This document shows positions 550 through 21,204 of a stretch of DNA of 64,000 nucleotides, piece by piece. Position numbers and translations under genes: made by a program. The stretch comes from Planctomycetota bacterium (GTDB lineage Bacteria > Planctomycetota > MHYJ01 > WSZJ01), in assembly GCA_016190145.1 (NCBI GenBank), contig JACPRD010000130.1:6528-70527 (forward strand), in the 5' to 3' direction. Position 1 is the stretch's first letter. Each line of letters begins with the position of its first letter. A model generated the notes under the pieces. The model saw only the letters and a list, made by a program, of their open reading frames with translations. It was not told where the DNA came from and searched no databases.

Positions 550-1947
550 TCAGGCCTCGACCGCCGCGCCGATGACCCGCCCATGCAGGTCGTACCCCTC
601 CGCGCGCGTCACGCGGACCGTGACGATCTCGCCGATCGGGATGTCCTTCCCCGTGAGGTAGATGACGCCGTCGATGTCGGGCGCGTCGCCGGCCGTGCGG
701 CCGACGGTGCGGCGGCCCTGGTGCGACTCGACGAGGACCTCGATCTCCTTGCCCAGCCACTTCTTCTGATGCTCGAACGCCACGGCCTGCTGGGCGCGCA
801 TGAGACGGTCGTAGCGGTCTTCCTTGACCGCGTCGCTCAACTGACCCTCGAACCGACCCGCGGGGGTGCCGCGCTCGGGCGAGTACTTGAACGCGCCGGC
901 GCGGTCGAACTTCGCTTCCTTCACGAACGCCAGCATCTCCTCGAAGTCCTCCTCGGTTTCGCCGGGGAAGCCGACGATGAAGGTCGTGCGCAGGACGAGG
1001 CCCGGAACGCGCTCGCGCAGGCGCCGGAGGAGATCCAGCGTCTCGGCCTTCGTGATGTTGCGTTTCATCGCTTTCAGCATGGGGTCGCTGATGTGCTGAA
1101 GCGGCATGTCCACGTAGCGGAGGACGTTCGGGGTGGCGGCGAGGGCGTCGATCATCTCGTCGGTGAAGAACGACGGGTACGCGTACATGAGGCGGACCCA
1201 GCGCACGCCGGGGACCGCGGCGACTTCGCGCAGGAGCCGCGGCAGCTCGAACGACTCGTAGAGGTCTTTGCCGTAGCTCGTCGTGTCCTGCGCGATGAGA
1301 TTGATCTCCTTCGCGCCGTCCGTCGCGAGCTCTCGCACCTCCTGCACGACCATCTCCACGGGCTTCGATCGGTGGCGCCCGCGGATTTTCGGGATGATGC
1401 AGAACGTGCAGACGTTGTCGCAGCCCTCGCTGATCTTCACGTAGGCCGTATGCCGCGGCGTCAGGCGCAGGCGGCCGACGTCTGCCTGGCACTTGCGGTC
1501 GTTGCGCTCGACCTGGTACTTCGACGGCGACTTGCGCCGCTTCGACTTGACTTTCGCCGTGAGGTCCGCGCAGAGCGCCGCGATCTTCTCCTCGCCCATG
1601 ATGCCCAGGAACCCGTCGACCTCCGGCAGGAGCTGAATCAGCGATTCCTTGTCCCGCTGCGCGAGGCACCCCGCCACCACCACGCCCGAAGCCTCGCCCT
1701 TCCGCTTGTGCTCGCACGCCTCCCGGATCACCGCGATCGACTCCTGCCGCGACGCCTCCAGAAAGCCGCACGTGTTGACGACGATGATGTCGGCGTCTTC
1801 GGCCTTCTCGCAGACCGCGAAATCCTCGAGCACGAGCCGGCCGAGCAGCACCTCGCTGTCGACGAGGTTCTTGGGACAGCCGAGCGAAATGAAGTGGATG
1901 GTGCCTGCGGGCAAGGGGGGCTCTCTGAAAAGCGGGGGAAAGATCAT
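550..1947 (-). CDS. rimO: ribosomal protein S12 methylthiotransferase RimO (radical SAM, TRAM C-terminus)
   Basis: ORF 550..2013 trimmed to ATG 1947. N-terminus IHFISLGCPKNLVDSEVLLGRL, radical SAM motif CDNVCTFC, C-terminal TRAM-like segment IEVLVES...VTVRVTRAEGYDLHG. Confidence 0.85.
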   Translation of the reverse strand: MIFPPLFREPPLPAGTIHFISLGCPKNLVDSEVLLGRLVLEDFAVCEKAEDADIIVVNTCGFLEASRQESIAVIREACEHKRKGEASGVVVAGCLAQRDKESLIQLLPEVDGFLGIMGEEKIAALCADLTAKVKSKRRKSPSKYQVERNDRKCQADVGRLRLTPRHTAYVKISEGCDNVCTFCIIPKIRGRHRSKPVEMVVQEVRELATDGAKEINLIAQDTTSYGKDLYESFELPRLLREVAAVPGVRWVRLMYAYPSFFTDEMIDALAATPNVLRYVDMPLQHISDPMLKAMKRNITKAETLDLLRRLRERVPGLVLRTTFIVGFPGETEEDFEEMLAFVKEAKFDRAGAFKYSPERGTPAGRFEGQLSDAVKEDRYDRLMRAQQAVAFEHQKKWLGKEIEVLVESHQGRRTVGRTAGDAPDIDGVIYLTGKDIPIGEIVTVRVTRAEGYDLHGRVIGAAVEA

Positions 1948-1967
1948 ACCGGTTGCCGGGGCGGGAC

Positions 1968-4900: not shown

Positions 4901-5567
4901 AGCCCGCCTCGCCCTCGACCACGAAGAATCCGCCGCGGCCGCCCTCGAGCGCGCCCAGGAGCCGGTCGAGCTCCGCGGCGCGGCCGACCATCGGGAGCCC
5001 TTTCGCCGCTTCGCGCACGACCGTGCCGCCCTCGCGCTCCCGCTCGACGCGGTGCACCTCGATCGGCCGCTCGCGCCCGCGGAGCCGGAGAGTCTCGGGC
5101 TCGCCGAAGACGATGTCGGCGCCCGCGGCGCGCGCGATCTCGCCTGACGCCAGGATCTCCCCCGGCGCGGCCTCTTCCTGCAGCCGCCGCGCGACGTTCA
5201 CCGGGTCGCCCATCACGGTCGGCCGGTCGCCGCCCACGCTTCCGTACAGAACCTCCCCCCGGTTCACCCCCGCGCGCATGTCCATCGCCGCCCCGCGCGC
5301 CGCCGCGAACGCGCGAGTTTCGGCGACGAGAGCGAGCGCCGCCCGGATCGCACGCGCCGGGTCGTCCGCGTGCGCGACGGGCGCGCCGAAGACGGCCATC
5401 ACGACGTCGCCGATGAACTTGTCGACCACCCCGCCGTGGCGCTCGACGACGGCGCGGAGGCGCGTGAAGAGCTCGTTGGCGGCCGCGGCGTCGTCGGCAA
5501 GTCCCGTGGCCTGCGCGAAGACGACGCAGACGACGCGGCGTTCTTCGGGAACCGAGGCGGCGTGCAT
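1968..5567 (-). CDS. class III adenylate/guanylate cyclase domain fused to AAA ATPase and TPR repeats
   Basis: 1199-aa ORF. N-terminus VVCVVFAQ...GGVVDKFIGDVVMAVFGAP...GDPVNVARRL (cyclase), Walker A GEAGSGKTRL, long C-terminal TPR-like repeats. Paralog of the CDS at 61338. Confidence 0.8.
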   Translation of the reverse strand: MHAASVPEERRVVCVVFAQATGLADDAAAANELFTRLRAVVERHGGVVDKFIGDVVMAVFGAPVAHADDPARAIRAALALVAETRAFAAARGAAMDMRAGVNRGEVLYGSVGGDRPTVMGDPVNVARRLQEEAAPGEILASGEIARAAGADIVFGEPETLRLRGRERPIEVHRVEREREGGTVVREAAKGLPMVGRAAELDRLLGALEGGRGGFFVVEGEAGSGKTRLLAEFRRRARERHARAWVTAGRALEGAHLPLGAFGEALRSAAPAGSALRAWVADGLGEEAGSLAPHLVLSSIGEEAPDDRARDLPPDARQRETARAWARLLHRRAAEGPAVLCLEDLQWADAGTPALMEDLAPALAEAPVVLLATSRPGGPAPAGFERIFLSPLAREDAALLAERALRRPAAPALGEFLFSQAGGHPFYVLELARWLDEQGLLAGDPAALAAPPTRLPDGLHGLLVARLDALPPAEKETLKSASAAGGAVWAELLSAATGRDVRADLESCRRRSLLVLRGTSLVPGDEEYAWSHALLRDAAYALLPRKDRLRLHGAIAGRLEDLVPRGGRRVRALAAGQRAQAGDAPAAAALWLASAREALQDASGLEALEYAREASRSAPGVEPRLIAARALTGLCRHAEALEEGRAAAGIPGLVTVDAARARILLSVVHERRGAFEEALSEADVALALGAGGGLRAEAAWCRGSALFRLGRLADALKAYEAAGAAAALPRAPGEPAPERDFPARLENALGLIRLYDGRYPEAQAHLENALRLQRELGSRRGVMVTLSNIGIIRNRLGDYEGALRAYGEALPLALYAGDRQQEGAILNNIGNSQFFLRDLDAAWRSWSESHRIRGELGDLAGSISTASNLALVHSRRGEHEASLKLYQESADTARRVGSRALLADPIQGRGIVLRGMGRFDEALEAFAEATAIQREVGNRSGLQPALSSLAWCLRAVGRLREARAASEESLALTREQNDRTVLAFRLQELGTICGDMDDDATAAGLYDEADVAMADVRDAPAAAFAAILVASNLAARGRAQEAVVRLGGICDRAEKEGWMSERLEAMTVRARVCVDAGLPESARRAREALCAARECGSALFTAVAAVAVARAEPSAAAAADLAAMAGAYPSSAGPLALAQFREQEAVAWLELGDRVRARLAAGEALEFARARGLPVSETRLRAFLARCGGQAGESDNPVLS

Positions 5568-7611: not shown

Positions 7612-8166
7612 ATGGCGCTGGAAGAACTGTTCTTCTCCGTCGACGTCGAAGCGAGCGGCCCGATCCCGGCGGAGTACAGCCTGCTCTCCATCGGCTGCGC
7701 CCTCGTGGGCCGCCCCGAGGCGACCTTCTACGCGGAACTCAAACCGGTCAACGGCAACGCCGTCCCCGAGGCGCTCAAGGTCGCCGGCCTCGACATGGAG
7801 AAACTCCGCGAGAAGGGCGAAGAGCCCGCGGCCGCCATGAAACGCTTCGCCGCCTGGATCAGGGAAACCTGCGGCGCCACCCACCGCCCCGTCTTCGCCG
7901 CGTTCAACGCGACGTTTGACTGGATGTTCGTGCACTGGTACTTCGTCAAGTTCACCGGCGCAAGCCCCTTCTCCATCAGCGGACTCGACATGAAGGCCTA
8001 CTACATGGGGATGATGGGCACCGGCTGGGGCGGCACGAAGAAGGAGCACGTGACGAAGAAGTTCCCGACGAAGGCGCAGCACACGCACAATGCGCTCGAC
8101 GACGCGAAGGAGCAGGCGGAGCTGTTCGGGCAGATGCTCGAGTATCAGAAGTTGCGCAAGGGGTGA
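7612..8166 (+). CDS. DEDDh-type 3'-5' exonuclease
   Basis: 184-aa ORF. Exo I FSVDVEASGP, Exo II FNATFDWMF, Exo III HNALDDAKEQA. Confidence 0.7.
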   Translation: MALEELFFSVDVEASGPIPAEYSLLSIGCALVGRPEATFYAELKPVNGNAVPEALKVAGLDMEKLREKGEEPAAAMKRFAAWIRETCGATHRPVFAAFNATFDWMFVHWYFVKFTGASPFSISGLDMKAYYMGMMGTGWGGTKKEHVTKKFPTKAQHTHNALDDAKEQAELFGQMLEYQKLRKG

Positions 8167-12523: not shown

Positions 12524-13045
12524 CTACGCCCCCCCCAGCAGCTTCTGCAGCTTTCCCCCGTACTTCACCACCCGCTTCATCGCCGCCGGCGACATCCTCA
12601 TGTACTCCTCGTGCGCCAGCGTCGCCGTCTCGAAGAATTCCAGCATGTCCCCCAGCCGCTTCTGCACCTCGAGCTCCGATCCCTTCCCCGCCTGCGCCAC
12701 CGCTTCCCGCAAGAGCTCCACCGTCGGGTCGATCTCGCGCCGCTTGCGCTCGTTCAGGACGACTTTGAACATGGCCCAGACGTCGCGGAAAGTCTCGAAA
12801 TGATCGCGGCGGTCGCCGAGGACGTGGACGACCTTCGCGAGGCCCCAGGCCTGGAGTTCGCGGAGAGACGTGGAGACGTTGGAGCGGGCGACGGAGAGGG
12901 TCGCGGCGATTTCCTCGGCGGCGAGGGGTTTGGAGGAGATGAAGAGGAGGGCGTGGATCTGGGCGACGGTGCGGTTGATGCCCCAGCGGGTGCCCATTTC
13001 GCCCCAGTGGAGGACGAACTTCTGCGTGGTGGGTGTGAGGTTCAT
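12524..13045 (-). CDS. GbsR/MarR-family winged-helix transcriptional regulator
   Basis: 173-aa ORF: FVLHWGEMGTRWGINRTVAQIHALLFISSKPLAAEEIAATLSVARSNVSTSLRELQAWGL. Divergent from the tRNA array. Confidence 0.75.
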   Translation of the reverse strand: MNLTPTTQKFVLHWGEMGTRWGINRTVAQIHALLFISSKPLAAEEIAATLSVARSNVSTSLRELQAWGLAKVVHVLGDRRDHFETFRDVWAMFKVVLNERKRREIDPTVELLREAVAQAGKGSELEVQKRLGDMLEFFETATLAHEEYMRMSPAAMKRVVKYGGKLQKLLGGA

Positions 13046-13079: not shown

Positions 13080-13469
13080 TATATGACACAATCCCGCCCC
13101 TGTCAAGCTCCCGCCTGGTCCCACGGATTCCCCCGAACCTTTCCACCCCCGCCCGCGATGAACTCTCTGTCGCCCGGCGCCACGGGACCGTAGGTCAACA
13201 GGAGATCGCCCGGCTGTGGCCCAGGAGACGTCGGTGCAACCCCGACCGGTCCCTTGAAAGGACGGCGCATGCCAGACGACGGAAGTGCGAATCGCCCCGA
13301 AGCGATCCCGCACCAACGATTGTCCAGACGCAGGTCCCGAAACCCGCTCGTTTGCGGGTCGAGAGGCTCTTTGACATCCGGCGGACTTTCCCAGGGCCGG
13401 CCCCCGGCCCCCATTCTCTCCCCTTCTCTCGGGGCCGGGGACCGGTCCGATTCTCTCTCTTCCCTCGCC

Positions 13470-13542
13470 TGGGGTGTCGTCTAACGGCTGAGGACGGCGG
13501 CCTCTCACGCTGCAGATGCAGGTTCAACTCCTGTCACCCCGA
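13470..13542 (+). tRNA. tRNA-Glu(CUC)
   Basis: Manual cloverleaf. Acceptor TGGGGTG/CACCCCG; D GTCT/GGAC; AC GCGGC-CTCTCAC-GCTGC (anticodon 13504-13506); T GCAGG-TTCAACT-CCTGT. No CCA. Confidence 0.8.
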
Positions 13543-13652
13543 TTCGGGAAGCGGAACGGAGGCCCGCGCTGCGGCGCCGGAGCGATGTCCCGGTATTCCC
13601 GAGGCAGTCCACCGGCGCCTCCGCGCGGGCCCCACGTTCCGCTTCCCGAATC
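13541..13652 (+). repeat. inter-tRNA GC-rich extended hairpin element H1
   Basis: 18-bp basal stem GATTCGGGAAGCGGAACG / CGTTCCGCTTCCCGAATC. Inner stems GGCCCGCGC/GCGCGGGCC and GGCGCCGG/CCGGCGCC. First nt is nt 72 of tRNA-Glu. Confidence 0.75.
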
Positions 13653-13671
13653 GGCGTAAAAAGAAAAGCAC

Positions 13672-13744
13672 GTCCTGGTAGCTCAACCAGAAGAGCGCCA
13701 GTCTCCGAAGCTGGAGGGTGCAGGCGCGAATCCTGCCCAGGACA
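13672..13744 (+). tRNA. tRNA-Arg(CCG), atypical T and D loops
   Basis: Acceptor GTCCTGG/CCAGGAC; AC CCAGT-CTCCGAA-GCTGG (anticodon 13705-13707); T GCAGG-CGCGAAT-CCTGC (C54 G55). D loop AACCAGAA lacks GG. Confidence 0.65.
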
Positions 13745-13748
13745 TCTC

Positions 13749-13819
13749 TGCGGGATGGATCAGGAGTTGATCGGCGGTCTCATAAGCCGCAAAGGAGGGT
13801 GCAAGTCCCTCTCCCGCTA
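13749..13819 (+). tRNA. tRNA-Met(CAU), initiator-like
   Basis: Acceptor TGCGGGA/TCCCGCT with a 1:72 U.U mismatch; D stem GATC/GATC (A11:U24); AC GCGGT-CTCATAA-GCCGC (anticodon 13781-13783); T GAGGG-TGCAAGT-CCCTC (G55); A73. Confidence 0.65.
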
Positions 13820-13822
13820 TCT

Positions 13823-13919
13823 TCAATTCGGGAGTCGTGAGACGCGCGCTGGACGCGAGAGGCGCGCGCAAGGTGCGCGCCTCGAGCGGCCGGCGCACGG
13901 CTCGCGACTCCCGAATTGA
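13823..13919 (+). repeat. inter-tRNA GC-rich extended hairpin element H2
   Basis: Basal stem TCAATTCGGGAGTCG / CGACTCCCGAATTGA. Inner hairpin GAGGCGCGC-GCAAGGT-GCGCGCCTC. Ends 1 nt before tRNA-Cys. Confidence 0.75.
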
Positions 13920-13920
13920 G

Positions 13921-13994
13921 GCGCGTGTGCCCGAGTGGTCGAAGGGTCCGGTTTGCAAAATCGGAATCCGCTGGTTCGAATCCAGCCGCGCGCT
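13921..13994 (+). tRNA. tRNA-Cys(GCA)
   Basis: Acceptor GCGCGTG/CGCGCGC; AC CCGGT-TTGCAAA-ATCGG (anticodon 13955-13957); T GCTGG-TTCGAAT-CCAGC. Confidence 0.85.
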
Positions 13995-14002
13995 TTCTCG
14001 CA

Positions 14003-14074
14003 CGGGCTGTAGCGCAGGGGAAGCGCGCTTCGTTGGGGTCGAAGAGGTCGGAAGTTCGAACCTTCCCAGCCCGA
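14003..14074 (+). tRNA. tRNA-Pro(GGG)
   Basis: Acceptor CGGGCTG/CAGCCCG (C1:G72); D GCGC/GCGC; AC CTTCG-TTGGGGT-CGAAG (anticodon 14035-14037); T GGAAG-TTCGAAC-CTTCC. Confidence 0.85.
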
Positions 14075-14080
14075 TATTTC

Positions 14081-14154
14081 GGGGGCGTCGTCTAGGGGCT
14101 CAGGACACCGCCCTGTCACGGCGGAGACCACGGGTTCAAATCCCGTCGCCCTCG
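14081..14154 (+). tRNA. tRNA-Asp(GUC)
   Basis: Acceptor GGGGGCG/CGCCCTC; D GTCT/GGAC; AC CCGCC-CTGTCAC-GGCGG (anticodon 14115-14117); T ACGGG-TTCAAAT-CCCGT. Confidence 0.85.
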
Positions 14155-14156
14155 TT

Positions 14157-14257
14157 TCGATGCGCGCAGCGCTCCGCAGAGGCGGCGGTCGCACGTCGGC
14201 CCGGCTGCGCCGGGCCTCGCGCGACCGCTCGCCCCTGCTACGCGCCGCGCGCATCGA
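14157..14257 (+). repeat. inter-tRNA GC-rich extended hairpin element H3 (same subfamily as H8)
   Basis: Basal stem TCGATGCGCGC / GCGCGCATCGA. Apical hairpin GGCCCGGC-TGC-GCCGGGCC. Shares the CGCTCGCCCCTGCT segment with H8. Starts 3 nt after tRNA-Asp. Confidence 0.75.
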
Positions 14258-14278
14258 CGGAACGGCAAGGAAATGCAA

Positions 14279-14351
14279 AGGGGTGTGGGCTAACCGGTAA
14301 GTCACCTCCCTGTTAAGGAGGTTGATCCAGGTTCGAATCCTGGTGCCCCTG
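14279..14351 (+). tRNA. tRNA-Asn(GUU)
   Basis: Acceptor AGGGGTG/TGCCCCT; AC CCTCC-CTGTTAA-GGAGG (anticodon 14312-14314); T CCAGG-TTCGAAT-CCTGG. Confidence 0.8.
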
Positions 14352-14363
14352 TTCGTTTTCGAA

Positions 14364-14453
14364 GGGATTCGCGCGGGTCCAGGACTGCCTGTGCCTTCGT
14401 TGAGCCAAGTTGGACCGTGACCCTGACGGGCGACGCACGGCCCGCCGAATCCC
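14364..14453 (+). repeat. degenerate inter-tRNA hairpin element H3b
   Basis: Basal stem GGGATTCG(C)GCGGG / CCCGC(C)GAATCCC with one bulge on each strand. Interior pairs only partially (GGTCC...GGACC). Confidence 0.45.
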
Positions 14454-14465
14454 CACGCAAACCAC

Positions 14466-14556
14466 GGATGGTTGGCAGAGCCCGGCTTAATGCGCCTGTC
14501 TCGAAAACAGGAGCTCCTGAAACACGGAGCCGGAGGTTCGAATCCTCCACCATCCT
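14466..14556 (+). tRNA. tRNA-Ser(CGA), class II
   Basis: Acceptor GGATGGT/ACCATCC; AC CCTGT-CTCGAAA-ACAGG (anticodon 14502-14504); long variable arm GCTCC...GGAGC; T GGAGG-TTCGAAT-CCTCC. Confidence 0.85.
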
Positions 14557-14560
14557 TCCA

Positions 14561-14649
14561 GGGGAGATGGCCGAGCGGTTGAAGGCACCGCGGTGCTAAC
14601 GCGGCGGGCCCCCTCGGGGGCCCCGAAGGTTCGAATCCTTCTCTTCCCG
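14561..14649 (+). tRNA. tRNA-Ser(GCU), class II
   Basis: Acceptor GGGGAGA/TCTTCCC; AC CCGCG-GTGCTAA-CGCGG (anticodon 14595-14597); long variable arm GGGCCCCC-TC-GGGGGCCC; T GAAGG-TTCGAAT-CCTTC. Confidence 0.85.
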
Positions 14650-14660
14650 TCCAATCTCCC

Positions 14661-14732
14661 GGGGGCGTGGCCGACCGGCAAGGCACCTGCCCGGCAGGCA
14701 GGACCACGAGGGTTCAAGTCCCTCCGCTTCCA
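14661..14732 (+). tRNA. tRNA-Ala(GGC) with C33
   Basis: Acceptor GGGGGCG/CGCTTCC including G3:U70; AC CCTGC-CCGGCAG-GCAGG (anticodon 14693-14695, position 33 = C); T GAGGG-TTCAAGT-CCCTC. Confidence 0.7.
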
Positions 14733-14744
14733 TCCGCTCGACAA

Positions 14745-14816
14745 GGGGGTGTGGCCTAACGGCAAGGCACCTGCGTCGCAAGCAGGAGTATGAGGGTTCA
14801 AATCCCTCCACTTCCA
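14745..14816 (+). tRNA. tRNA-Ala(CGC)
   Basis: Acceptor GGGGGTG/CACTTCC including G3:U70; AC CCTGC-GTCGCAA-GCAGG (anticodon 14777-14779); T GAGGG-TTCAAAT-CCCTC. Confidence 0.8.
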
Positions 14817-14821
14817 TCCGA

Positions 14822-14892
14822 AGGGGCGTCGTTCAGCAGGAGGACCCCGGTTTCCAAGTCCGGTGACGAGGGTGCAATTCCTTCCGCCCCTG
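14822..14892 (+). tRNA. tRNA-Trp(CCA), atypical T loop
   Basis: Acceptor AGGGGCG/CGCCCCT; AC CCGGT-TTCCAAG-TCCGG (31:39 U.U; anticodon 14854-14856); T GAGGG-TGCAATT-CCTTC (G55). Confidence 0.65.
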
Positions 14893-14911
14893 TTGTCAGC
14901 CCGCCGTTCCT

Positions 14912-15013
14912 CCAATTCGAGGCTTGCGGAGAGGGACGGCACGAGCGCGCCCCCGAGCGCGCAGCACGAGGGGCGTGCGCGAGCGCCGGGCCTCGCAGCG
15001 AGTTTCGAATTGG
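14912..15013 (+). repeat. inter-tRNA GC-rich extended hairpin element H4 (same subfamily as H5)
   Basis: Basal stem CCAATTCGA / TCGAATTGG, extended by G.U-rich pairing. 50-nt core at 14938-14987 is 49/50 identical to 15446-15495. Last nt is nt 1 of tRNA-Glu(UUC). Confidence 0.75.
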
Positions 15014-15083
15014 GGCGCGTCGGCTAGTGGAAGGCCCCCAGGCTTTCATCCTGACAGCGCGGGTTCGATTCCCGCCGCGCCTA
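15013..15083 (+). tRNA. tRNA-Glu(UUC)
   Basis: Acceptor GGGCGCG/CGCGCCT; AC CCAGG-CTTTCAT-CCTGA (27:43 C.A; anticodon 15045-15047); T GCGGG-TTCGATT-CCCGC. Confidence 0.8.
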
Positions 15084-15090
15084 TCTGTGA

Positions 15091-15163
15091 AGGAGCGTCG
15101 CTTAGTGGTTGAGCACCGGTTTCTTAAACCGGACGAGGAAGGGTTCGAATCCCTCCGCTCCTA
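15091..15163 (+). tRNA. tRNA-Lys(CUU)
   Basis: Acceptor AGGAGCG/CGCTCCT; AC CCGGT-TTCTTAA-ACCGG (anticodon 15123-15125); T AAGGG-TTCGAAT-CCCTC with a 49:65 A.C mismatch or a bulged A. Confidence 0.75.
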
Positions 15164-15167
15164 TCCC

Positions 15168-15239
15168 GGGGTTGTAGCTCAAAGGCCGAGCACCTGTTTT
15201 TTAAGCAGAGAGATGTGGGTTCGATCCCCACCGGCCCCA
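15168..15239 (+). tRNA. tRNA-Lys(UUU)
   Basis: Acceptor GGGGTTG/CGGCCCC; D GCTC/GAGC; AC CCTGT-TTTTTAA-GCAGA (anticodon 15200-15202); T GTGGG-TTCGATC-CCCAC. Confidence 0.8.
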
Positions 15240-15250
15240 TTCGGTCCAAG

Positions 15251-15322
15251 AGGGGAGTCAGGTAACTGGTAACCACCGAGTCCCTGAAACTCGCCATGCT
15301 GGTTCGAATCCAGCCTCCCCTA
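15251..15322 (+). tRNA. tRNA-Gln(CUG) with C33
   Basis: Acceptor AGGGGAG/CTCCCCT; AC CGAGT-CCCTGAA-ACTCG (anticodon 15284-15286, position 33 = C); T GCTGG-TTCGAAT-CCAGC. Confidence 0.7.
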
Positions 15323-15332
15323 TGAAAAACGC

Positions 15333-15403
15333 GGGCACGTAGGCTAACGGCAGGCCACCAGGTTCTCAGCCTGACAGCGAGGGTTCGATTCCCTCCGTGC
15401 CTA
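15333..15403 (+). tRNA. tRNA-Glu(CUC), paralog of the tRNA at 15013
   Basis: Acceptor GGGCACG/CGTGCCT; AC CCAGG-TTCTCAG-CCTGA (anticodon 15365-15367); T GAGGG-TTCGATT-CCCTC. Confidence 0.8.
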
Positions 15404-15419
15404 TCTGAAAGCCCTTCCT

Positions 15420-15521
15420 CTCGATTCGAGGAGCGGGAGGTGAAGGGCACGAGCGCGCCCCCGAGCGCGCAGCGCGAGGGGCGTGCGCGAGCGCCCTTCA
15501 CCGGACGCTCCTCGAATCGAG
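15420..15521 (+). repeat. inter-tRNA GC-rich extended hairpin element H5 (same subfamily as H4)
   Basis: 16-bp basal stem CTCGATTCGAGGAGCG / CGCTCCTCGAATCGAG. Inner stem GGTGAAGG/CCTTCACC encloses the conserved 50-nt core at 15446-15495. Last nt is nt 1 of tRNA-Phe. Confidence 0.8.
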
Positions 15522-15593
15522 GTGAAGTAGCTTAGACGGTCTGAGCGCCTGGTTGAAAACCAGGAGGCGGAGGTTCGATACCTCCCTTCACCA
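15521..15593 (+). tRNA. tRNA-Phe(GAA)
   Basis: Acceptor GGTGAAG/CTTCACC; AC CCTGG-TTGAAAA-CCAGG (anticodon 15555-15557); T GGAGG-TTCGATA-CCTCC. Confidence 0.85.
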
Positions 15594-15597
15594 TTGC

Positions 15598-15670
15598 GCG
15601 GGCGTCGTCCAACGGACCAGGACCCGAGACTACGAATCTCGAGATGAGGGTTCGATTCCTTCCGCCCGTA
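15598..15670 (+). tRNA. tRNA-Arg(ACG)
   Basis: Acceptor GCGGGCG/CGCCCGT; D GTCC/GGAC; AC CGAGA-CTACGAA-TCTCG (anticodon 15632-15634); T GAGGG-TTCGATT-CCTTC. Confidence 0.85.
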
Positions 15671-15673
15671 TCG

Positions 15674-15745
15674 CGGGGCGTGGCCGAGAAGAGAGGCTCC
15701 CGTTTCCTAAACGGGACCACGCAGGTGCGACTCCTGCCGTCCCGA
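15674..15745 (+). tRNA. tRNA-Arg(CCU), atypical T and D loops
   Basis: Acceptor CGGGGCG/CGTCCCG; AC CCCGT-TTCCTAA-ACGGG (anticodon 15706-15708); T GCAGG-TGCGACT-CCTGC (G55). D loop GAGAAGAGA has no GG. Confidence 0.65.
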
Positions 15746-15749
15746 CTTG

Positions 15750-15820
15750 GCTCCCGTCGTCCAGCGGAAGGGCCCCCGTCCTCTAAACGGGCGACGCAGG
15801 TTCGACCCCTGCCGGGAGCG
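15750..15820 (+). tRNA. tRNA-Arg(UCU) with C33
   Basis: Acceptor GCTCCCG/CGGGAGC; AC CCCGT-CCTCTAA-ACGGG (anticodon 15782-15784, position 33 = C); T GCAGG-TTCGACC-CCTGC. Confidence 0.7.
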
Positions 15821-15828
15821 TCATCCAA

Positions 15829-15909
15829 GGGCGTGTACGGAATGGGATAACCGCGCCGGCCGTAACCCGGCAGCCTCGCGCTTAGAAGGTTCGAGTCCTT
15901 CCGCGCCCA
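15829..15909 (+). tRNA. tRNA-Tyr(GUA), class II, with C33
   Basis: Acceptor GGGCGTG/CGCGCCC; AC GCCGG-CCGTAAC-CCGGC (anticodon 15862-15864, position 33 = C); 13-nt variable arm; T GAAGG-TTCGAGT-CCTTC. Confidence 0.75.
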
Positions 15910-15947
15910 TTGATCACGAGAGACTTCCAGGAAATGCTTTGCCTCCC

Positions 15948-16066
15948 AGAGTTTGAGAGAAAACCGGGATGGGGGGCGGAGTCGGCCGGCTCGTCCAGTC
16001 CCGGCCGCATCGTGGGCCTTCCTGCCGGCCGACGGAGCATCCCAGCCCGGTTTTCTCTCAAACTCT
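15948..16066 (+). repeat. inter-tRNA extended hairpin element H6
   Basis: Perfect 21-bp basal stem AGAGTTTGAGAGAAAACCGGG / CCCGGTTTTCTCTCAAACTCT. Inner stem GTCGGCCGG/CCGGCCGAC. Ends 1 nt before tRNA-Gly(GCC). Confidence 0.8.
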
Positions 16067-16067
16067 T

Positions 16068-16139
16068 GCGGCTGTAGCTCAACGGCAGAGCGCCACGTTG
16101 CCAACGTGGATACTGCGGGTTCAAGCCCCGCCAGTCGCT
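16068..16139 (+). tRNA. tRNA-Gly(GCC)
   Basis: Acceptor GCGGCTG/CAGTCGC; D GCTC/GAGC; AC CCACG-TTGCCAA-CGTGG (anticodon 16100-16102); T GCGGG-TTCAAGC-CCCGC. Confidence 0.85.
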
Positions 16140-16145
16140 TTCTTT

Positions 16146-16219
16146 CAGGACGTAGCGGAGCCTGGTAACGCGCTTCGTTCGGGGCGAAGAGACCGGTGGT
16201 TCGAATCCACCCGTCCTGA
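16146..16219 (+). tRNA. tRNA-Pro(CGG)
   Basis: Acceptor CAGGACG/CGTCCTG (C1:G72); AC CTTCG-TTCGGGG-CGAAG (anticodon 16180-16182, G37); T GGTGG-TTCGAAT-CCACC. Confidence 0.85.
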
Positions 16220-16235
16220 TTTTCTCGGCAGACGC

Positions 16236-16308
16236 GCTTCTGTAGCCCAACGGAAGAGGCACCAAGCTCAGAACTTGGCGAGTGGAGGTTCGAATCCTCC
16301 CGGAAGCA
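16236..16308 (+). tRNA. class I (short variable arm) tRNA with Leu anticodon CAG
   Basis: Acceptor GCTTCTG/CGGAAGC; D arm TAGCCCAACGGAAGAGGC; AC CCAAG-CTCAGAA-CTTGG (anticodon 16269-16271); variable region only 5 nt (CGAGT); T GGAGG-TTCGAAT-CCTCC; A73. Confidence 0.7.
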
Positions 16309-16324
16309 TTTTGAATCTCAGAAC

Positions 16325-16395
16325 GGTCTCGTAGCTCAAAGGCAGAGCGCCGGTCTCACATACCGGTGACGGAGGTTCGAGTCCTTCCGGGACCA
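16325..16395 (+). tRNA. tRNA-Val(CAC)
   Basis: Acceptor GGTCTCG/CGGGACC; D GCTC/GAGC; AC CCGGT-CTCACAT-ACCGG (anticodon 16357-16359); T GGAGG-TTCGAGT-CCTTC. Confidence 0.85.
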
Positions 16396-16405
16396 TGGAC
16401 ACACG

Positions 16406-16477
16406 GCTCCTGTGGTCTAGCGGCCGGGCACCAGCGCGACATGCTGGGCAAGGCAGGTTCGACTCCTGCCGGGAGCA
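16406..16477 (+). tRNA. tRNA-Val(GAC) with G32 C33
   Basis: Acceptor GCTCCTG/CGGGAGC; AC CCAGC-GCGACAT-GCTGG (anticodon 16438-16440, position 33 = C); T GCAGG-TTCGACT-CCTGC. Confidence 0.7.
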
Positions 16478-16483
16478 CTTCAT

Positions 16484-16554
16484 GCCTCTCTAGTTCAATG
16501 GGAGAACCCCTGCTTCCCACGCAGGTGACGAGGGATCGATACCCTCGAGAGGCT
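16484..16554 (+). tRNA. tRNA-Gly(CCC), A54 T loop
   Basis: Acceptor GCCTCTC/GAGAGGC; D GTTC/GAAC; AC CCTGC-TTCCCAC-GCAGG (anticodon 16516-16518); T GAGGG-ATCGATA-CCCTC. Confidence 0.75.
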
Positions 16555-16558
16555 CTTG

Positions 16559-16629
16559 GCGCCTGTAGCTCAAGGGGAGAGCCCCCGCCCGATAAGCGGG
16601 AGATGCAGGTTCAAGTCCTGACTGGCGCA
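16559..16629 (+). tRNA. tRNA-Ile(GAU) with C33; two stem mismatches
   Basis: Acceptor GCGCCTG/CTGGCGC (6:67 U.U); AC CCCGC-CCGATAA-GCGGG (anticodon 16591-16593, position 33 = C); T GCAGG-TTCAAGT-CCTGA (49:65 G.A). Confidence 0.6.
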
Positions 16630-16673
16630 TTGAGACCCGGGAGGAGTTCCCGGACCGACTGCCTCGGCATCCC

Positions 16674-16775
16674 AGAGCGCGTGAACGATTCGATTGGAGG
16701 CGCGCGGCCGGGGCGAGCGACGCGAAGCGGCGCCAGGTCCGGCCCCCGCCGGAGATCGAGTCGTTCACGCGCTCT
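16674..16775 (+). repeat. inter-tRNA GC-rich extended hairpin element H7
   Basis: 15-bp basal stem AGAGCGCGTGAACGA / TCGTTCACGCGCTCT, continued by TTCGAT/ATCGAG pairing. The 3' arm overlaps the first 5 nt of tRNA-Thr (16771-16775). Confidence 0.75.
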
Positions 16776-16841
16776 TGTAGCTCAACGGTGAGCACCTGCC
16801 TCGTAAGCAGGGGGATGTGGGTTCGATTCCCACCAGGAGCT
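16771..16841 (+). tRNA. tRNA-Thr(CGU)
   Basis: Acceptor GCTCTTG/CAGGAGC; D GCTC/GAGC; AC CCTGC-CTCGTAA-GCAGG (anticodon 16802-16804); T GTGGG-TTCGATT-CCCAC. Confidence 0.85.
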
Positions 16842-16843
16842 TC

Positions 16844-16938
16844 GGAATCGCGCGCGCTTCGCAGGGGCGGCTCGCGCACGGCGGCCGGGCTTCGCCCGGC
16901 CTGGCGCGCTCGCTCGCCCCTGCTGCGCGCGCGATTTC
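16844..16938 (+). repeat. inter-tRNA GC-rich extended hairpin element H8 (same subfamily as H3)
   Basis: Basal stem GGAATCGCGCGCGC / GCGCGCGCGATTTC. Also GCAGGGGCG/CGCCCCTGC. Apical hairpin GGCCGGGC-TTC-GCCCGGCC. Starts 3 nt after tRNA-Thr. Confidence 0.8.
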
Positions 16939-16967
16939 GAAAAGGGAAAGGCGCCGGGAAGGAGAAG

Positions 16968-17040
16968 GCTCTCGTAGCCCAACGGCAGAGGCGGCGGTCT
17001 CAAGAACCGCGCGGTGCAGGTTCGAATCCTGCCGGGAGCA
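16968..17040 (+). tRNA. class I (short variable arm) tRNA with Leu anticodon CAA
   Basis: Acceptor GCTCTCG/CGGGAGC; D arm TAGCCCAACGGCAGAGGC; AC GCGGT-CTCAAGA-ACCGC (anticodon 17001-17003); 5-nt variable region (GCGGT); T GCAGG-TTCGAAT-CCTGC; A73. Confidence 0.7.
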
Positions 17041-17050
17041 TCGAAGAAAC

Positions 17051-17125
17051 GCCCTCGTAGCCCAATCTGGCAGAGGCCCATGGTTGAGGGCCATGGTGGT
17101 GATGGTTCGATTCCATCCGAGGGCA
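17051..17125 (+). tRNA. class I (short variable arm) tRNA with Leu anticodon GAG
   Basis: Acceptor GCCCTCG/CGAGGGC; D arm TAGCCCAATCTGGCAGAGGC; AC CATGG-TTGAGGG-CCATG (anticodon 17086-17088); 5-nt variable region (GTGGT); T GATGG-TTCGATT-CCATC; A73. Confidence 0.7.
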
Positions 17126-17248: not shown

Positions 17249-19810
17249 CTAAAGCCGCGGATCGACCGGCTCGCTTTCCAGTGCCAGGACGCCGAAAACA
17301 CATTCGTGGACGCGGCGAAGCGGCTCGTTGCGGACGAAACGCTCGAGCCCCTCGACTCCGAGGGCGAACTCCCTCATCGCAAGAGAACGCTTCGCGCCGA
17401 GGCCGCGGGAGCGGAGCCGACTCAGGTTCGCGGGGATCGAGTAGTCCGGGCCATAGATGATGCGGAGGTACTCGGGTCCGCGGCACTTGACGGCTGGTTG
17501 AGCGACTCCCCTCCGCCCCCGCGCGACGAAGTCCAGCGGCTTTACGACCATTCCCTCTCCACCGCGCGAAGTCAGTTCCTCCCACCAGCGGATCCCCGCC
17601 TGTTCGCTGGCCTCATCTGTGACATTGACCTCGATGAAACCGGTCTCGATGAGGATCTTGCTTCCCTTGCAGAATCGGGAGATGGCGCTCATGTGCCACA
17701 GGTGGTTCTTGTCGAAATACGTTTTCCCCTCGGTGGCCAGCACGTGGAACGGCGCCAGCTTGATGTCCGCCAGCGTCTTGACCGGCCAGCAGTACCCGCG
17801 ATAGGCGGTCACGTATTTCTCGGCGAGAGAAGCGCGTTCGACCGAGCGTTCCAGCAGCGAGGCGACGTCAGCTCCCCGCGCTGCTGCCGTTTTCAGTGTT
17901 TCGACCGAGTCCCTCAGCGCTGCCCCTGACGCCGCCCCGACGGCCGCGTACTGCCGCTTCACCAGCTCCTGGGCCTTCGCCGACCATGGCATCAGTTCGC
18001 AATCGAGGCAGACCCAATCCGTGTCGAATTCCTTCCAGGATTCTGAGCGGTCCAGCGCTTCCCGCAGATGCGCCAGCAGCTCTGTCTCAAACGCGAGATC
18101 TTCGAAGAAGCGGCGCCCGGTGCGAGTCACGCAGATGCCGCTTTCACTGACGATTCCGAATCTGCGACGGGCTGCGTCTTCATTGCGACAAAGCACCACG
18201 ACGACCCGTGATCCCATGTGCTTCTCTTCGCACAGCACCTGCGGAATTCCCTCGTGCCGGAAGTACGCGAAGGCCTGCGCCGGATGCTCCAGCAGACTCC
18301 CCTCCTGCGAGGTCTCCGGCGGCGACATGGTCGGCGGAAGGTAGATCAGCCACTTCGGGTTGGCTGCAAAGCGGCTCATGACCTCGAGCGCGGCGATCGC
18401 GTTCTCTTCGCGGATCGTCACGTTGTGATGGAGGCGCGTCGTCACGATCCTCTTCCCGATCACGTCCGCGAGGTCGAGCAGGTCGTCGTGGGCCTGCTGC
18501 GGGGAGAGCGCCTGAGTCTGGAATTCCGCCGGATGGAAGGGCTTCGCCGGTTTCGCGTACATGGCGCCCGCGGGGACTGAAACAAGCTCCTTCTCCGGGT
18601 AGCGAAGCGCCGTGAGCTTGCCGCCGAAAACGCAGCCGGTATCGATGTTGATCGTGTTGTTGAGCCACTCGGGCGCCGGCACGGGCGTGTGTCCGTAGAC
18701 GACCATGGACGGCCCGCGATACTCCGCGGCCCAGTTGTTGCGGACCGGCAGGCCGAATTCGTCGGTCTCCCCCGTCGTCTCGCCGTAGAGTGCGAACTCC
18801 CGCACCTTGCCGGAGCCTCGACCCTGCATGGTCTCTTTCATCCCGGCGTGCGCCACGACGAGCCCGTTGTCGTCGAGCACGTAGTGGGAGACCAGGTCGT
18901 CAATGAAGGCGGCCGTCTTCTCGCGAAATGCCGCCGGTTCGCGGTCCAGCTGCGCGAGGGATTCGGCAAGACCGTGGGTGATCTGCACGTCCTTGCCGCG
19001 GAGTTTCCGGAGCAGCTTGACGTCGTGGTTTCCCGGGACGCAAAGCGCGGTCCCGGCCTCCACCATGCCCATCACGAGCCGCAGCACGTCCGGAGTGTTC
19101 GGTCCACGATCGACGAGATCGCCCACGAAGACTGCTTTGCGATTCCCGGGCGGCTTCGCGGCAATTGTGCGCTCCCCAGTCGTCGTCACGTCGACGACAT
19201 ACCCGAGACGCTCAAGAAGCGCCTTCGTCTCGTCGAAGCAGCCGTGAATGTCCCCGATGATGTCGAACGGGCCATGATCGCTCTTCCGGTTGTTCCACAA
19301 CGGCTCTCGCTCGATGGTTGCCGCATCGATCTCTTCCGGGCTTGCCAGAACGTGGACGTGCCGGAAGCCTTCAACCTGAAGGTTCCGGAGCGATTTGCGA
19401 AGCTGCTGCGACTGCTGCCGGATGACATGTGGACCGAACGTGCGCTCACTACGCCCGCGGTTGCGGTCCTGGCACAGCCGTTCCGGAAGGTCCAGCACGA
19501 TCGCGACGGGCAGGCAATGGTAGTCCCGGGCCAGCGCGACGAGGGGTTTGCGCGCTTCGGCCTGGACGTTCGTCGCATCGATGACGGTGAGCTTGCCCGC
19601 CGCCAGGCGTTTTCCGGCGATGTAGTGCAGCACCTCAAAGGCCGCGTTCGTGGCAGCTTGATTGTTCTCGTCGTCCGACACGAGGCCGCGGCAGAAGTCT
19701 GAGGACAGGATCTCCGTCGGGAGAAAGTGCTTCCGCCCGAACGTGGACTTCCCGCTGCCCGAGGGGCCGATCAGGACAACGAGGGACAGCTCAGGTATTT
19801 TCAGTTTCAC
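17249..19810 (-). CDS. pnkp: polynucleotide kinase-phosphatase/ligase Pnkp (RNA repair)
   Basis: ORF 17249..19918 trimmed to GTG 19810, which overlaps the hen1 TGA (GTGA). Kinase P-loop GPSGSGKST. Metallophosphoesterase motifs GDIHGC, GDLVDRGP, GNHD. Nucleotidyltransferase-type Lys motif EEKHMGSR in the C-terminal ligase-like domain. 853 aa. Confidence 0.85.
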   Translation of the reverse strand: MKLKIPELSLVVLIGPSGSGKSTFGRKHFLPTEILSSDFCRGLVSDDENNQAATNAAFEVLHYIAGKRLAAGKLTVIDATNVQAEARKPLVALARDYHCLPVAIVLDLPERLCQDRNRGRSERTFGPHVIRQQSQQLRKSLRNLQVEGFRHVHVLASPEEIDAATIEREPLWNNRKSDHGPFDIIGDIHGCFDETKALLERLGYVVDVTTTGERTIAAKPPGNRKAVFVGDLVDRGPNTPDVLRLVMGMVEAGTALCVPGNHDVKLLRKLRGKDVQITHGLAESLAQLDREPAAFREKTAAFIDDLVSHYVLDDNGLVVAHAGMKETMQGRGSGKVREFALYGETTGETDEFGLPVRNNWAAEYRGPSMVVYGHTPVPAPEWLNNTINIDTGCVFGGKLTALRYPEKELVSVPAGAMYAKPAKPFHPAEFQTQALSPQQAHDDLLDLADVIGKRIVTTRLHHNVTIREENAIAALEVMSRFAANPKWLIYLPPTMSPPETSQEGSLLEHPAQAFAYFRHEGIPQVLCEEKHMGSRVVVVLCRNEDAARRRFGIVSESGICVTRTGRRFFEDLAFETELLAHLREALDRSESWKEFDTDWVCLDCELMPWSAKAQELVKRQYAAVGAASGAALRDSVETLKTAAARGADVASLLERSVERASLAEKYVTAYRGYCWPVKTLADIKLAPFHVLATEGKTYFDKNHLWHMSAISRFCKGSKILIETGFIEVNVTDEASEQAGIRWWEELTSRGGEGMVVKPLDFVARGRRGVAQPAVKCRGPEYLRIIYGPDYSIPANLSRLRSRGLGAKRSLAMREFALGVEGLERFVRNEPLRRVHECVFGVLALESEPVDPRL

Positions 19811-21204
19811 CGCGAGAACACCGCCATCTGGGTAGGCGCGCCGACGACGGCGTCCTCGGGGCCGACCGGAAGAATCCGAACTTGATACCCGGCACGGCTG
19901 GCGACACGTTCCGCCCACGCTCTGAAATCAACGCGCGACCATTCGAACCGGTGGTCCTTGTGACGAAACTGGCCGGCAGGAAGCGTCTCGAACTTCACGT
20001 TGTAGTCCGAGTTCGGCGTCGTGAGGACTACGAACCTGGGCTTCGCGTGCTCGAACAGCACGCGCTCGAACGCGTCGAGGCGACCCGGGTCCAGATGTTC
20101 CACGACCTCGATCAGTGCCGCGGCGTCGAACCCCTCGAGACGCTTGTCGCGATAGGTCAGCGATCCCTGGATGAGCTGCAGGCGCGCCTTCTGGATGTCC
20201 GGCATCCGCTCGAGCTTGAGCTTGTCACTCGCGAACTCGAGCGCGCGATGCGAGACGTCCATCCCCAGCACGCGCTCGAAGGTCTTGTCGGCCAGCAGGT
20301 CTCTGAGAAGACGGCCCTCGCCGCATCCGAGGTCCATGACGCTTTTCGCGCCCACTTCTCGAAGCACGGCGACGACTGCCCCCATCCGATGATCGTGAAG
20401 CCGGATCTTCTCTTCCAGCCCAGCTTCCTGCCTTGCCTGATTCTCCCGTGTCGATTCCAGTTCTTCGAGATCGTCGTCCACCAGCCGGGACAACGCGTCG
20501 CGACACAGGTCCCGCCGGTGCTTGAGGTAGCGACGGGCAATCGCGTCCTTCTCCGGATGCCCCGCCAGCCAGCCCTCGCCATGACGAAGCAGTTTCTCGA
20601 CCTCGTCCTCACCGACCCAGTAGTGCTTTGAGTTGTCCAGCACCGGAACCAGCACGTAGAGGTGGCTCAGCAGCTCTTGGAGCATGCGCGTGCCCTGGAG
20701 GTGGAGCGTGAAGTACACACTGTCGCCCCATTCCGGAAAGGTCGGGTCGAGGGAGTGCGGTTCGACGCTGACACGATAGCCGAGCGGCTCGAAGAGAGAC
20801 CGCAGGAACGCCTCGCCGCCGCGGCAGGGGATGACCGAGAGCGTGGCTTCAAGTTTCAGGGGCTTTGACGCCAGCTCCGGCCTCTCCTTGCTTCGCCCGG
20901 CGAGCGCGGAGCCGAAGATCTGCGCGATCGCGACGCTCAGGAACGAAGAAGCAACGTAGGGCCGATCATTCACGTACTGGTCGAGCGAGTGGCCTTCGCC
21001 GCTGCCGGGCTTCCCCCGCACGAGGCCGATCGGGTCGATCTCGAGCAGGAGCGCTGCCGTGCAGCGCTGCTCCGCCGCTTCGGGGTAGAAGACGTGCGCT
21101 TTGCCGAATGAAAGGTCGAAGGACTGCGCGCGAGCAGGATTCTTGTGAAGGAGAAACCCCAGATCCGTGGCTGGAAACGTGGAAGTGGTGATGGTGAGCA
21201 ACAT
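19807..21204 (-). CDS. hen1: RNA 3'-terminal ribose 2'-O-methyltransferase Hen1
   Basis: 465-aa ORF. N-terminus MLLTITTSTFPATDLGFLLHKNPAR is typical of bacterial Hen1. C-terminal SAM motif VMDLGCGEGRLL. Immediately upstream of, and coupled to, pnkp. Confidence 0.85.
   Translation of the reverse strand: MLLTITTSTFPATDLGFLLHKNPARAQSFDLSFGKAHVFYPEAAEQRCTAALLLEIDPIGLVRGKPGSGEGHSLDQYVNDRPYVASSFLSVAIAQIFGSALAGRSKERPELASKPLKLEATLSVIPCRGGEAFLRSLFEPLGYRVSVEPHSLDPTFPEWGDSVYFTLHLQGTRMLQELLSHLYVLVPVLDNSKHYWVGEDEVEKLLRHGEGWLAGHPEKDAIARRYLKHRRDLCRDALSRLVDDDLEELESTRENQARQEAGLEEKIRLHDHRMGAVVAVLREVGAKSVMDLGCGEGRLLRDLLADKTFERVLGMDVSHRALEFASDKLKLERMPDIQKARLQLIQGSLTYRDKRLEGFDAAALIEVVEHLDPGRLDAFERVLFEHAKPRFVVLTTPNSDYNVKFETLPAGQFRHKDHRFEWSRVDFRAWAERVASRAGYQVRILPVGPEDAVVGAPTQMAVFSR

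Follow-up and report, generated by a model that had tools for sequence, protein, structure and literature searches.

Six of the 33 co-oriented tRNA genes that form a dense array within a 64,000-nt stretch of Planctomycetota DNA (contig JACPRD010000130.1, positions 6,528 to 70,527 of the forward strand; this whole stretch is referred to as the window, and its coordinates are counted from its first letter) encode cytidine instead of uridine at position 33 of the anticodon loop. C33 is inherited across the homologous arrays of three further genomes, resides in genes under structural constraint and is strongly enriched over other tRNA arrays. U33 is among the most invariant nucleotides in biology, and nature rarely provides elongator-type tRNAs lacking it as test cases; the arrays analyzed here offer four isoacceptors with C33 fixed over deep divergence and seven that switch between U and C. 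They are of the L-array type, which is known, in a variant that is new: U33 and further universal nucleotides are stably missing from its members.

C33 in a dense tRNA array

tRNA genes of the window (68% G+C) were called with ARAGORN and with the Rfam tRNA covariance model (RF00005, gathering score 29). ARAGORN identified 31 plus-strand genes at 13470–17125, to which the covariance model added tRNA-His (13184–13254) and tRNA-Trp (14822–14892). The resulting array of 33 genes (13184–17125) covers all 20 amino acids and is rich in C34 and G34 anticodons. All genes lie on the plus strand, spacers measure 3–215 nt, a repeating gene pattern is absent and the density amounts to 33 genes per 3,942 bp, or 8.4 per kb. 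The array accordingly falls within the definition of a tRNA array unit, namely at least 20 tRNA genes at a density of at least 2 genes per kb (Tran et al., PMC4758250), and it shares the layout of L-arrays, being long, co-oriented, non-periodic and amenable to co-transcription; such arrays occur in Planctomycetes (PMC8421152). L-arrays have further been characterized by a patchy distribution with horizontal spread, and by silence under normal conditions with induction upon translational stress (PMC8421152). Absent from the ARAGORN list are Thr-GGU, Ser-GGA/UGA, Ala-UGC, Val-UAC and elongator Met. Since several indispensable tRNAs are thus missing, other tRNA loci must exist and the array cannot be a complete set; a canonical stand-alone tRNA-Ser(UGA) is found in the genome of a relative.

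Position 33 was read from anticodon loops extracted at the ARAGORN anticodon positions. Twenty-seven genes of the window carry T33 and six carry C33, the latter always in a 7-nt loop closed by five out of five Watson-Crick or GU pairs. The six plus-strand genes encode tRNA-Ala(GGC) (14661–14732; loop CCGGCAG at 14691–14697, C33 at 14692), tRNA-Gln(CTG) (15251–15322; CCCTGAA at 15282–15288, C33 at 15283), tRNA-Arg(TCT) (15750–15820; CCTCTAA at 15780–15786, C33 at 15781), the class II tRNA-Tyr(GTA) (15829–15909; CCGTAAC at 15860–15866, C33 at 15861), tRNA-Val(GAC) (16406–16478; GCGACAT at 16436–16442, C33 at 16437) and tRNA-Ile(GAT) (16559–16629; CCGATAA at 16589–16595, C33 at 16590). A preliminary description of this DNA had reported six C33 tRNAs with 7-nt loops and 5-bp stems, and its loops and coordinates coincide exactly with ours. 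The loop register it assumed also holds in covariance-model alignments, where Arg-TCT and Gln-CTG align over their full length (1–71) with C in the U33 column. Full-length Rfam matches were obtained for five of the six genes at 39.7–54.9 bits (Ala-GGC 49.8, Val-GAC 39.7, Ile-GAT 54.9), with the class II tRNA-Tyr called and folded by ARAGORN only.

Three comparator arrays were scored in the same way. C33 is absent from the Anabaena 7120 L-array (0/23) and from phage T5 (0/22), and present once in the high-GC mycobacteriophage Myrna (1/29), giving a non-U33 total of 1/74. The probability of observing at least six C33 genes among 33 is 5e-6 at the comparator rate and 4e-5 at an assumed rate of 2%; with the related arrays described below included, the contrast becomes 34/131 versus 1/74 (Fisher p = 1e-6). 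As the comparator rate lies far below 6/33, chance is excluded. GC pressure as the sole cause is weakened by the low C33 count of high-GC Myrna. Tuning of strong anticodons was likewise rejected by inspection, with C33 accompanying weak (GUA, GAU, UUC) and strong (GGC) anticodons alike.

Inheritance of C33 and further non-canonical features

Relatives of the array were sought via contigs encoding close relatives of Pnkp, an RNA repair protein encoded next to the window's array, and by searching one genome per species with a 41-nt tRNA-Asn probe. The probe matched 3 of 185,579 species genomes and had no match in JGI metagenomes or IMG/VR. The array was recovered in the same gene order in three further Planctomycetota metagenome-assembled genomes (MAGs), namely JBBTCT010000022 from Hainich groundwater (L001, also L009), WSZJ01000097 (L008) and JAIOPR010000106 from Lake Pavin (L010). 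A Tyr probe with position 33 left free and a Trp G55 probe revealed no further arrays, and a 22-nt probe for the Met anticodon arm retrieved nothing but canonical tRNA-Met genes, single and unrelated, from viral contigs. The window's array is 82–84% identical to the other three, which share 88–92% identity among themselves. It therefore represents the outgroup, and the C33 states held in common are older than the deepest split.

Genes at the locus comprise ftsK, tpiA, gmk, a coaBC-like flavoprotein gene, yicC, a molybdopterin oxidoreductase gene and NrfD, and the array locus is chromosomal. The order ftsK, 264-aa gene, 369-aa gene and array is common to the window and L001, and a homologue of the 369-aa gene is situated ~2.5 kb beyond the array end in L008; within the clade, the array is syntenic and looks vertically inherited. 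Unlike the tRNA arrays of mycobacteria and their phages, which reside on phages or plasmids, it yielded only single-tRNA matches (77–98% identity) and no array in phage, plasmid and IMG/VR collections, and a phage or plasmid origin was rejected. The parallel with phage-borne tRNAs drawn in the preliminary description is hence not borne out. Common descent with the Myrna, Anabaena and T5 arrays was discarded as well, with same-anticodon identities of 0.58–0.63 (~0.62 for Myrna) corresponding to background.

C33 was counted in 6/33 genes of the window, 11/35 of L001, 8/30 of L008 and 9/33 of L010, i.e., in 18–31% per array and in 34/131 overall, all of them departing from the near-universal U33 of functional tRNAs. 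Every array that contains the respective gene has C33 in Tyr-GUA, Val-GAC and Ile-GAU (4/4 each) and in Ala-GGC (3/3), in which C33 is fixed and ancestral. Nucleotides adjacent to these conserved cytidines vary: the Val loop reads CCGACAT in the other arrays, and position 32 of Ile-GAU is C, T, T and A in the four arrays. Pro-UGG, absent from the window, carries C33 in 3/3 arrays. Cys-GCA, Ala-CGC, Glu-UUC and Leu-GAG have C33 in the three relatives and T33 in the window; conversely, C33 is confined to the window in Gln-CUG (T33 in L001, L008 and L010) and in Arg-UCU, a gene found in the window's array only, and to L001 in one Glu-CUC copy and Gln-UUG. Altogether, seven isoacceptors toggle between T and C at position 33, and 20 ortholog groups have T33 in all arrays. 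Among the standard 7-nt loops of the four arrays (n = 130), position 33 is T in 95, C in 34 and A in one, and thus a pyrimidine in 129; G is found there in an additional tRNA-like gene, whose loop measures 8 nt. Two odd tRNA-like genes occupy the array slot between Tyr and Gly-UCC, one in L001 (18879–18954) with the 8-nt anticodon loop CGTATGAG and one in L010 (4381–4462), an 82-nt ‘Gln’ with loop CATTGGC and A33. The occurrence of the same C33 states in three independently assembled MAGs rules out a sequencing artefact.

The array genes evolve under constraint on their fold. Across 30 ortholog groups, 142 stem pairs are variable: 74 underwent compensatory change that preserved pairing, 34 have a substitution on a single side, and 34 have lost pairing in one or more sequences. 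Within the families with fixed C33, Tyr displays four compensatory and no broken pairs, Ala-GGC three and none, and Val-GAC and Ile two and one each. For instance, the Ile anticodon stem reads CCCGC/GCGGG in the window but GCCGG/CCGGC in L001, with C33 unchanged. tRNA bodies can be aligned between genomes whereas most spacers cannot, and variable positions make up 19% of stems, 23% of anticodon-loop flanks and 32% of other loops. Identity elements are retained, including G3:U70 in all Ala genes and the long variable arm and A73 in Tyr. Mean pairwise identity is 0.865 and 0.871 in C33 groups compared with 0.862 in T33 groups (p = 0.74), ruling out that C33 genes are faster-decaying copies.

These results bear on the possibility that the genes are pseudogenes, decaying or unexpressed, or that they result from faulty assembly; unexpressed pseudogenes had been named in the preliminary description as an alternative that would undo its interpretation. 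In its favor, some members score low with Rfam, such as Val-GAC at 39.7 bits, or require a relaxed ARAGORN threshold, and the relatives' arrays contain a few odd tRNA-like genes. Compensatory evolution in every C33 family, retained identity elements and conservation equal to that of T33 genes nevertheless exclude pseudogenes and artefacts as far as sequence can show, and the same states recur in four independent assemblies, leaving this explanation barely credible.

One array member stands apart in its conservation: tRNA-Asn(GUU) (window 14279–14351) has a mean identity of 0.99 over the four arrays, where other members average 0.86, and may be the sole Asn tRNA gene of these genomes.

C33 is no isolated oddity: this array family has adopted other non-canonical solutions that are likewise stable. 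tRNAs for His, Arg-CCG, Met, Trp and Arg-CCU have G55 in place of U55 wherever present in the four arrays (window 13184–13254, 13672–13744, 13749–13819, 14822–14892 and 15674–15746). The D loop contains AG instead of GG in 15 of 18 G55 genes and GG in 112 of 112 T55 genes, so that positions 18 and 55, which form a tertiary pair, covary in a conserved manner. tRNA-Gly(CCC) (window 16484–16555; L001 18138–18208; L008 3270–3340; L010 3297–3369) has A54 in place of T54 in 4/4 arrays and T58 in the three relatives, an apparent swap of the T54-A58 reverse-Hoogsteen pair. The sole CAU tRNA has a 1-72 mismatch, and its anticodon arm matches that of canonical tRNA-Met genes from viral contigs that are likewise mismatched at 1-72, as in initiators; this initiator-like Met retains U33.

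All tRNA-Leu genes of the array are 73–75 nt long and devoid of a long variable arm (window 16236–16308, 16968–17040 and 17051–17125). Bacterial housekeeping tRNA-Leu normally possesses such an arm. Short, class-I-like tRNA-Leu genes are also present in the Anabaena L-array (75–78 nt; L013 553–627, 752–829, 849–923 and 1012–1089), which argues that standard long-arm Leu genes reside elsewhere. The array Leu-CAA is matched over about 64–71 nt by genes annotated as ‘tRNA-Leu’ in phages of Streptomyces and Corynebacterium. Along with C33, the array family thus offers natural material on 18/55 covariation and on tRNA-Leu without the long arm.

Predicted consequences of C33 and competing explanations

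Published biochemistry gives an indication of what C33 would change. Colicin E5, which requires YGU, cuts a U33C minihelix as well as the wild type (PMC1635277), and the K. lactis gamma-toxin shows wild-type cleavage kinetics on a C33 stem-loop (PMC2275089). E. coli TsaBCDE, in contrast, does not form N6-threonylcarbamoyladenosine at position 37 (t6A37) on U33C tRNA, and the same is true of yeast KEOPS but not of human KEOPS (PMC8887486), whereas Tgt requires the UGU sequence U33-G34-U35 (cited in PMC1635277). In view of the t6A and Tgt data, the best-founded consequence of C33 is escape from U33-dependent modification: t6A37 would be lost on Ile-GAU and Arg-UCU, and queuosine probably on Tyr-GUA. 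A natural and functional C33 tRNA is known in the cytoplasmic initiator tRNA-Met of multicellular eukaryotes, in which C33 serves as anti-determinant against the t6A enzymes of bacteria and yeast (PMC8887486); this is, however, a single P-site initiator, whereas planctomycete C33 occurs in elongator-type tRNAs of many specificities.

With about as much confidence as doubt, we favor the reading that the six genes function within a chromosomal L-array, inherited near ftsK, which provides a supplementary pool of tRNAs with different or incomplete modification. Position 33 would then be constrained to be a pyrimidine, not a uridine, for about a third of the array isoacceptors. A pyrimidine would keep the loop usable, while C, devoid of the N3-H of the U-turn, would go unread by U33-requiring enzymes. 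The array would be expressed and its products charged, and the pool would serve a supplementary role alongside or instead of a standard tRNA set encoded elsewhere in the genome, as has been shown of the Anabaena L-array under translational stress.

The trn operon on plasmid delta of Anabaena/Nostoc sp. PCC 7120 is the closest parallel, with dozens of dense, co-oriented, non-periodic tRNA genes for most amino acids (PMC8421152, PMC10272220). Of its tRNAs, 23/26 are charged in vivo (PMC4758250, PMC8421152, PMC10272220), and translational stress induces the operon together with the repair ligase gene rtcB under control of the repressor TrcR (PMC10272220). Both systems are hence linked to RNA repair, rtcB being co-regulated in Anabaena and Pnkp/Hen1 being adjacent in the window. 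The Anabaena array differs in its complete lack of C33, compared with 18–31% in the planctomycete arrays, and in being plasmid-borne rather than chromosomal and syntenic over divergent genomes. Further, no HNH homing endonuclease was seen in the planctomycete array, and the neighbouring regulator, instead of the ribbon-helix-helix repressor TrcR, is of MarR type and, among the locus sequences available, confined to the window.

Three considerations weigh against a supplementary under-modified pool. Relaxed specificity of the t6A and Tgt enzymes, as in human KEOPS, would abolish the predicted under-modification; high-GC bias combined with weak selection could yield T-to-C changes without functional pay-off, though high-GC Myrna has 1/29 only; and the role as a stress pool is based on one cyanobacterial model.

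The preliminary description had connected recurrent C33 to nuclease evasion. In the form weighed here, C33, perhaps together with other lost universal nucleotides, would have been selected for making a poor tRNase substrate, and the array would constitute a cleavage-resistant back-up set operating with Pnkp/Hen1 repair. At sites recognized by nucleases, phage tRNAs deviate from those of the host, with insensitivity proposed to arise from anticodon-loop changes (PMC10264068), and tRNA array units have been discussed as anti-defence elements (PMC12803027); the Mycobacterium and mycobacteriophage units resemble the planctomycete array in their high GC content and in comprising about 30 or more tRNAs (PMC5966550, PMC12803027). 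The single C33 tRNA of Myrna is Val-GAC (L017 9791–9863, corresponding to NC_011273 95075–95147), with an anticodon arm, ACCAGC-CCGACAT-GCTGG, identical to that of the planctomycete array Val-GAC, which is a point worth follow-up. Evasion would also fit the conservation of C33 in specific isoacceptors, the coordinated and conserved replacement of universal nucleotides (A18/G55 in five tRNAs, A54 in Gly-CCC), and the position of Pnkp/Hen1, found beside or inside the array in two genomes and accompanied in L001–L004 by a PifA-like defence gene. Phage T5 likewise maintains a supplementary tRNA cluster that counters tRNA-depleting defences (PMC11555353, PMC11464382), its tRNA-Tyr acting against Retron-Eco7 and its tRNA-Lys against PARIS/PrrC, but all 22 of its tRNAs have U33, and protection by tRNA-Tyr was ascribed for the most part to a strong promoter that drives its high expression (PMC11555353). 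The in vitro data on colicin E5 and gamma-toxin, against which U33C gives no protection, moreover contradict evasion in part, C33 affects only 18–31% of array tRNAs, and the affected set fits no known nuclease's target list. Loop flanks are not unusually variable (23%) and the C33 states are stable, which leaves no arms-race signature; the array is chromosomal and therefore differs from the invader-encoded tRNAs considered in PMC10264068; Pnkp/Hen1 is missing from the array flanks available for L008 and L010 and gives the impression of having been inserted recently; and no anticodon nuclease was detected near the arrays in Pfam and PADLOC scans of neighbouring proteins. Evasion is a plausible but unsupported link, possible yet doubtful. 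A bolder version would regard the array as a complete parallel tRNA set in which U33 is replaced by C33, G18/U55 by A18/G55 and U54 by A54 and the Leu arm is lost, functional on the ribosome yet invisible to broad-spectrum tRNases (toxins, HEPN nucleases, contact-dependent inhibition toxins) and to the modification enzymes they depend on, thereby providing chromosomal immunity against tRNA-targeting attack. We deem this unlikely. If the genomes hold canonical copies elsewhere, the array itself would be the clearest case to date of a second bacterial tRNA set with a structure of its own.

Alternatively, the array could simply hold the clade's ordinary tRNA genes for these isoacceptors, with a translation and modification machinery that co-evolved to accept C33. 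The conserved chromosomal locus, the match between the array and the host's GC-rich codon preference, a tRNA divergence (about 82% identity) that is not extreme next to an FtsK identity of 72%, and the near-invariant tRNA-Asn, as expected of a sole copy, agree with such a lineage-specific peculiarity. It is hard to reconcile with short, class-I-like Leu tRNAs unlike known bacterial housekeeping tRNA-Leu, with the absence of several indispensable tRNAs from the array, with the supernumerary genes that L-arrays add in the surveyed phyla including Planctomycetes (PMC8421152), and with a relative (L005) that has no array in roughly 3 kb downstream of Pnkp, so that we rate it as decidedly unlikely. 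Post-transcriptional editing of C33 to U33 would restore the canonical nucleotide and would explain why the change is always to C, the sole base that a deaminase can convert to U, and why C33 is conserved in genes under strong structural constraint; C8-to-U8 editing of Methanopyrus tRNAs by CDAT8 provides a parallel. We know of no C-to-U editing activity at position 33, the scanned neighbouring proteins contain no deaminase-like domain, and with T and C freely interchanging between orthologues, tolerance is a simpler account than a dedicated enzyme, which renders editing highly improbable.

Compared with these alternatives, the supplementary L-array pool remains our preferred reading, and the array sequences permit questions that extend beyond it: to what extent the U-turn requirement stems from the ribosome and to what extent it is imposed by modification enzymes (t6A, queuosine), what purpose long tRNA arrays serve, and whether the loss of universal nucleotides protects from tRNA-targeting toxins.

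RNA repair genes and other neighbours of the array

Convergent with the array, the minus strand encodes Pnkp (17249–19810; 853 aa as deposited) with kinase, phosphatase and ligase domains (PF13671, PF00149 and PF16542, the latter at 594 bits), its stop codon lying 123 nt from tRNA-Leu(GAG). The protein shares 100% identity with one deposited for a Planctomycetes MAG. Hen1 (19807–21204, minus strand) overlaps the pnkp start by 4 nt and combines a Pnkp-associating N-terminal domain (PF12623, 385 bits) with methyltransferase domains, so that the window contains the full domain set and operon arrangement of Pnkp/Hen1 RNA repair. The preliminary description had placed the array next to a tRNA-repair operon, which is true of the window and of L001 but not a conserved trait: Pnkp/Hen1 was not found in the 4.3 kb (L008) and 2.7 kb (L010) of array flank available. 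We further compared the module between the window (17249–21204) and L001 (8607–12499), alongside FtsK (window 31421–33874; L001 1–2034). Pnkp is 93–94% and Hen1 92% identical, as opposed to 72% for FtsK and 33–41% for neighbouring genes. Being far more alike than FtsK and the neighbours, the repair module looks recently moved by horizontal transfer. A conserved linkage between Pnkp/Hen1 and the array was rejected on these grounds, the pair being present at two of four arrays only, and the biochemistry of the bacterial Pnkp/Hen1 system is not specifically tied to C33.

In L001–L004, Pnkp/Hen1 belongs to a ~13-kb block together with a PifA-like KAP NTPase and a DUF4132/DUF7737 protein. This block sits between the array genes tRNA-Leu(CAA) and tRNA-Leu(GAG) (L001 4798–4872 and 17904–17977). 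The PifA-like gene of L002 (5169–7490, minus strand) matches PADLOC PifA at 1e-84, and the L001 copy is apparently disrupted. In L005, Pnkp/Hen1 lies between an integrase gene and tRNA-Ser. Convincing att-like repeats bounding the Pnkp/Hen1 block were not found. For the adjacency, insertion of a mobile repair or defence island at tRNA genes would be an explanation no worse than functional coupling.

On the opposite side of the array, a MarR-family regulator gene (12524–13045, minus strand) is divergently oriented to the first tRNA of the array. Between the two, beside the palindrome TTTCTGTCTGTACAGAAA, lies the near-consensus promoter TTGACA-17-TATATT (13106–13078, minus strand), and no consensus sigma-70-type promoter was found on the plus strand for the array. 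The regulator was considered as a conserved array partner and dismissed, as it was not found at the other loci, where the L008 and L010 sequences stop short of the upstream side of the array. Within the array, each of the longer spacers is occupied by a 100–130-nt, G+C-rich imperfect hairpin abutting the flanking tRNAs (13529–13664, 13823–13919, 14157–14257, 14912–15013, 15414–15527, 15948–16066, 16674–16775 and about 16845–16965). Several of these hairpins have ATTCGAG/ATTCGGG at their base in common. They may serve as processing sites or represent small palindromic repeat elements.

Further upstream, a 184-aa DEDDh exonuclease (7612–8166, plus strand) matches the PADLOC ‘Effector Exonuclease’ nearly end to end (3.5e-69), and ~2 kb away (1968–5567, minus strand) lies the gene for a nucleotide cyclase-AAA-TPR protein that weakly resembles PycC (2e-13); the two may represent a defence-type pairing. 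A MiaB/RimO/MtaB-type radical-SAM methylthiotransferase with UPF0004, Radical_SAM and TRAM domains (550–2013, minus strand), ~11 kb from the array, is possibly a tRNA A37-modifying enzyme.

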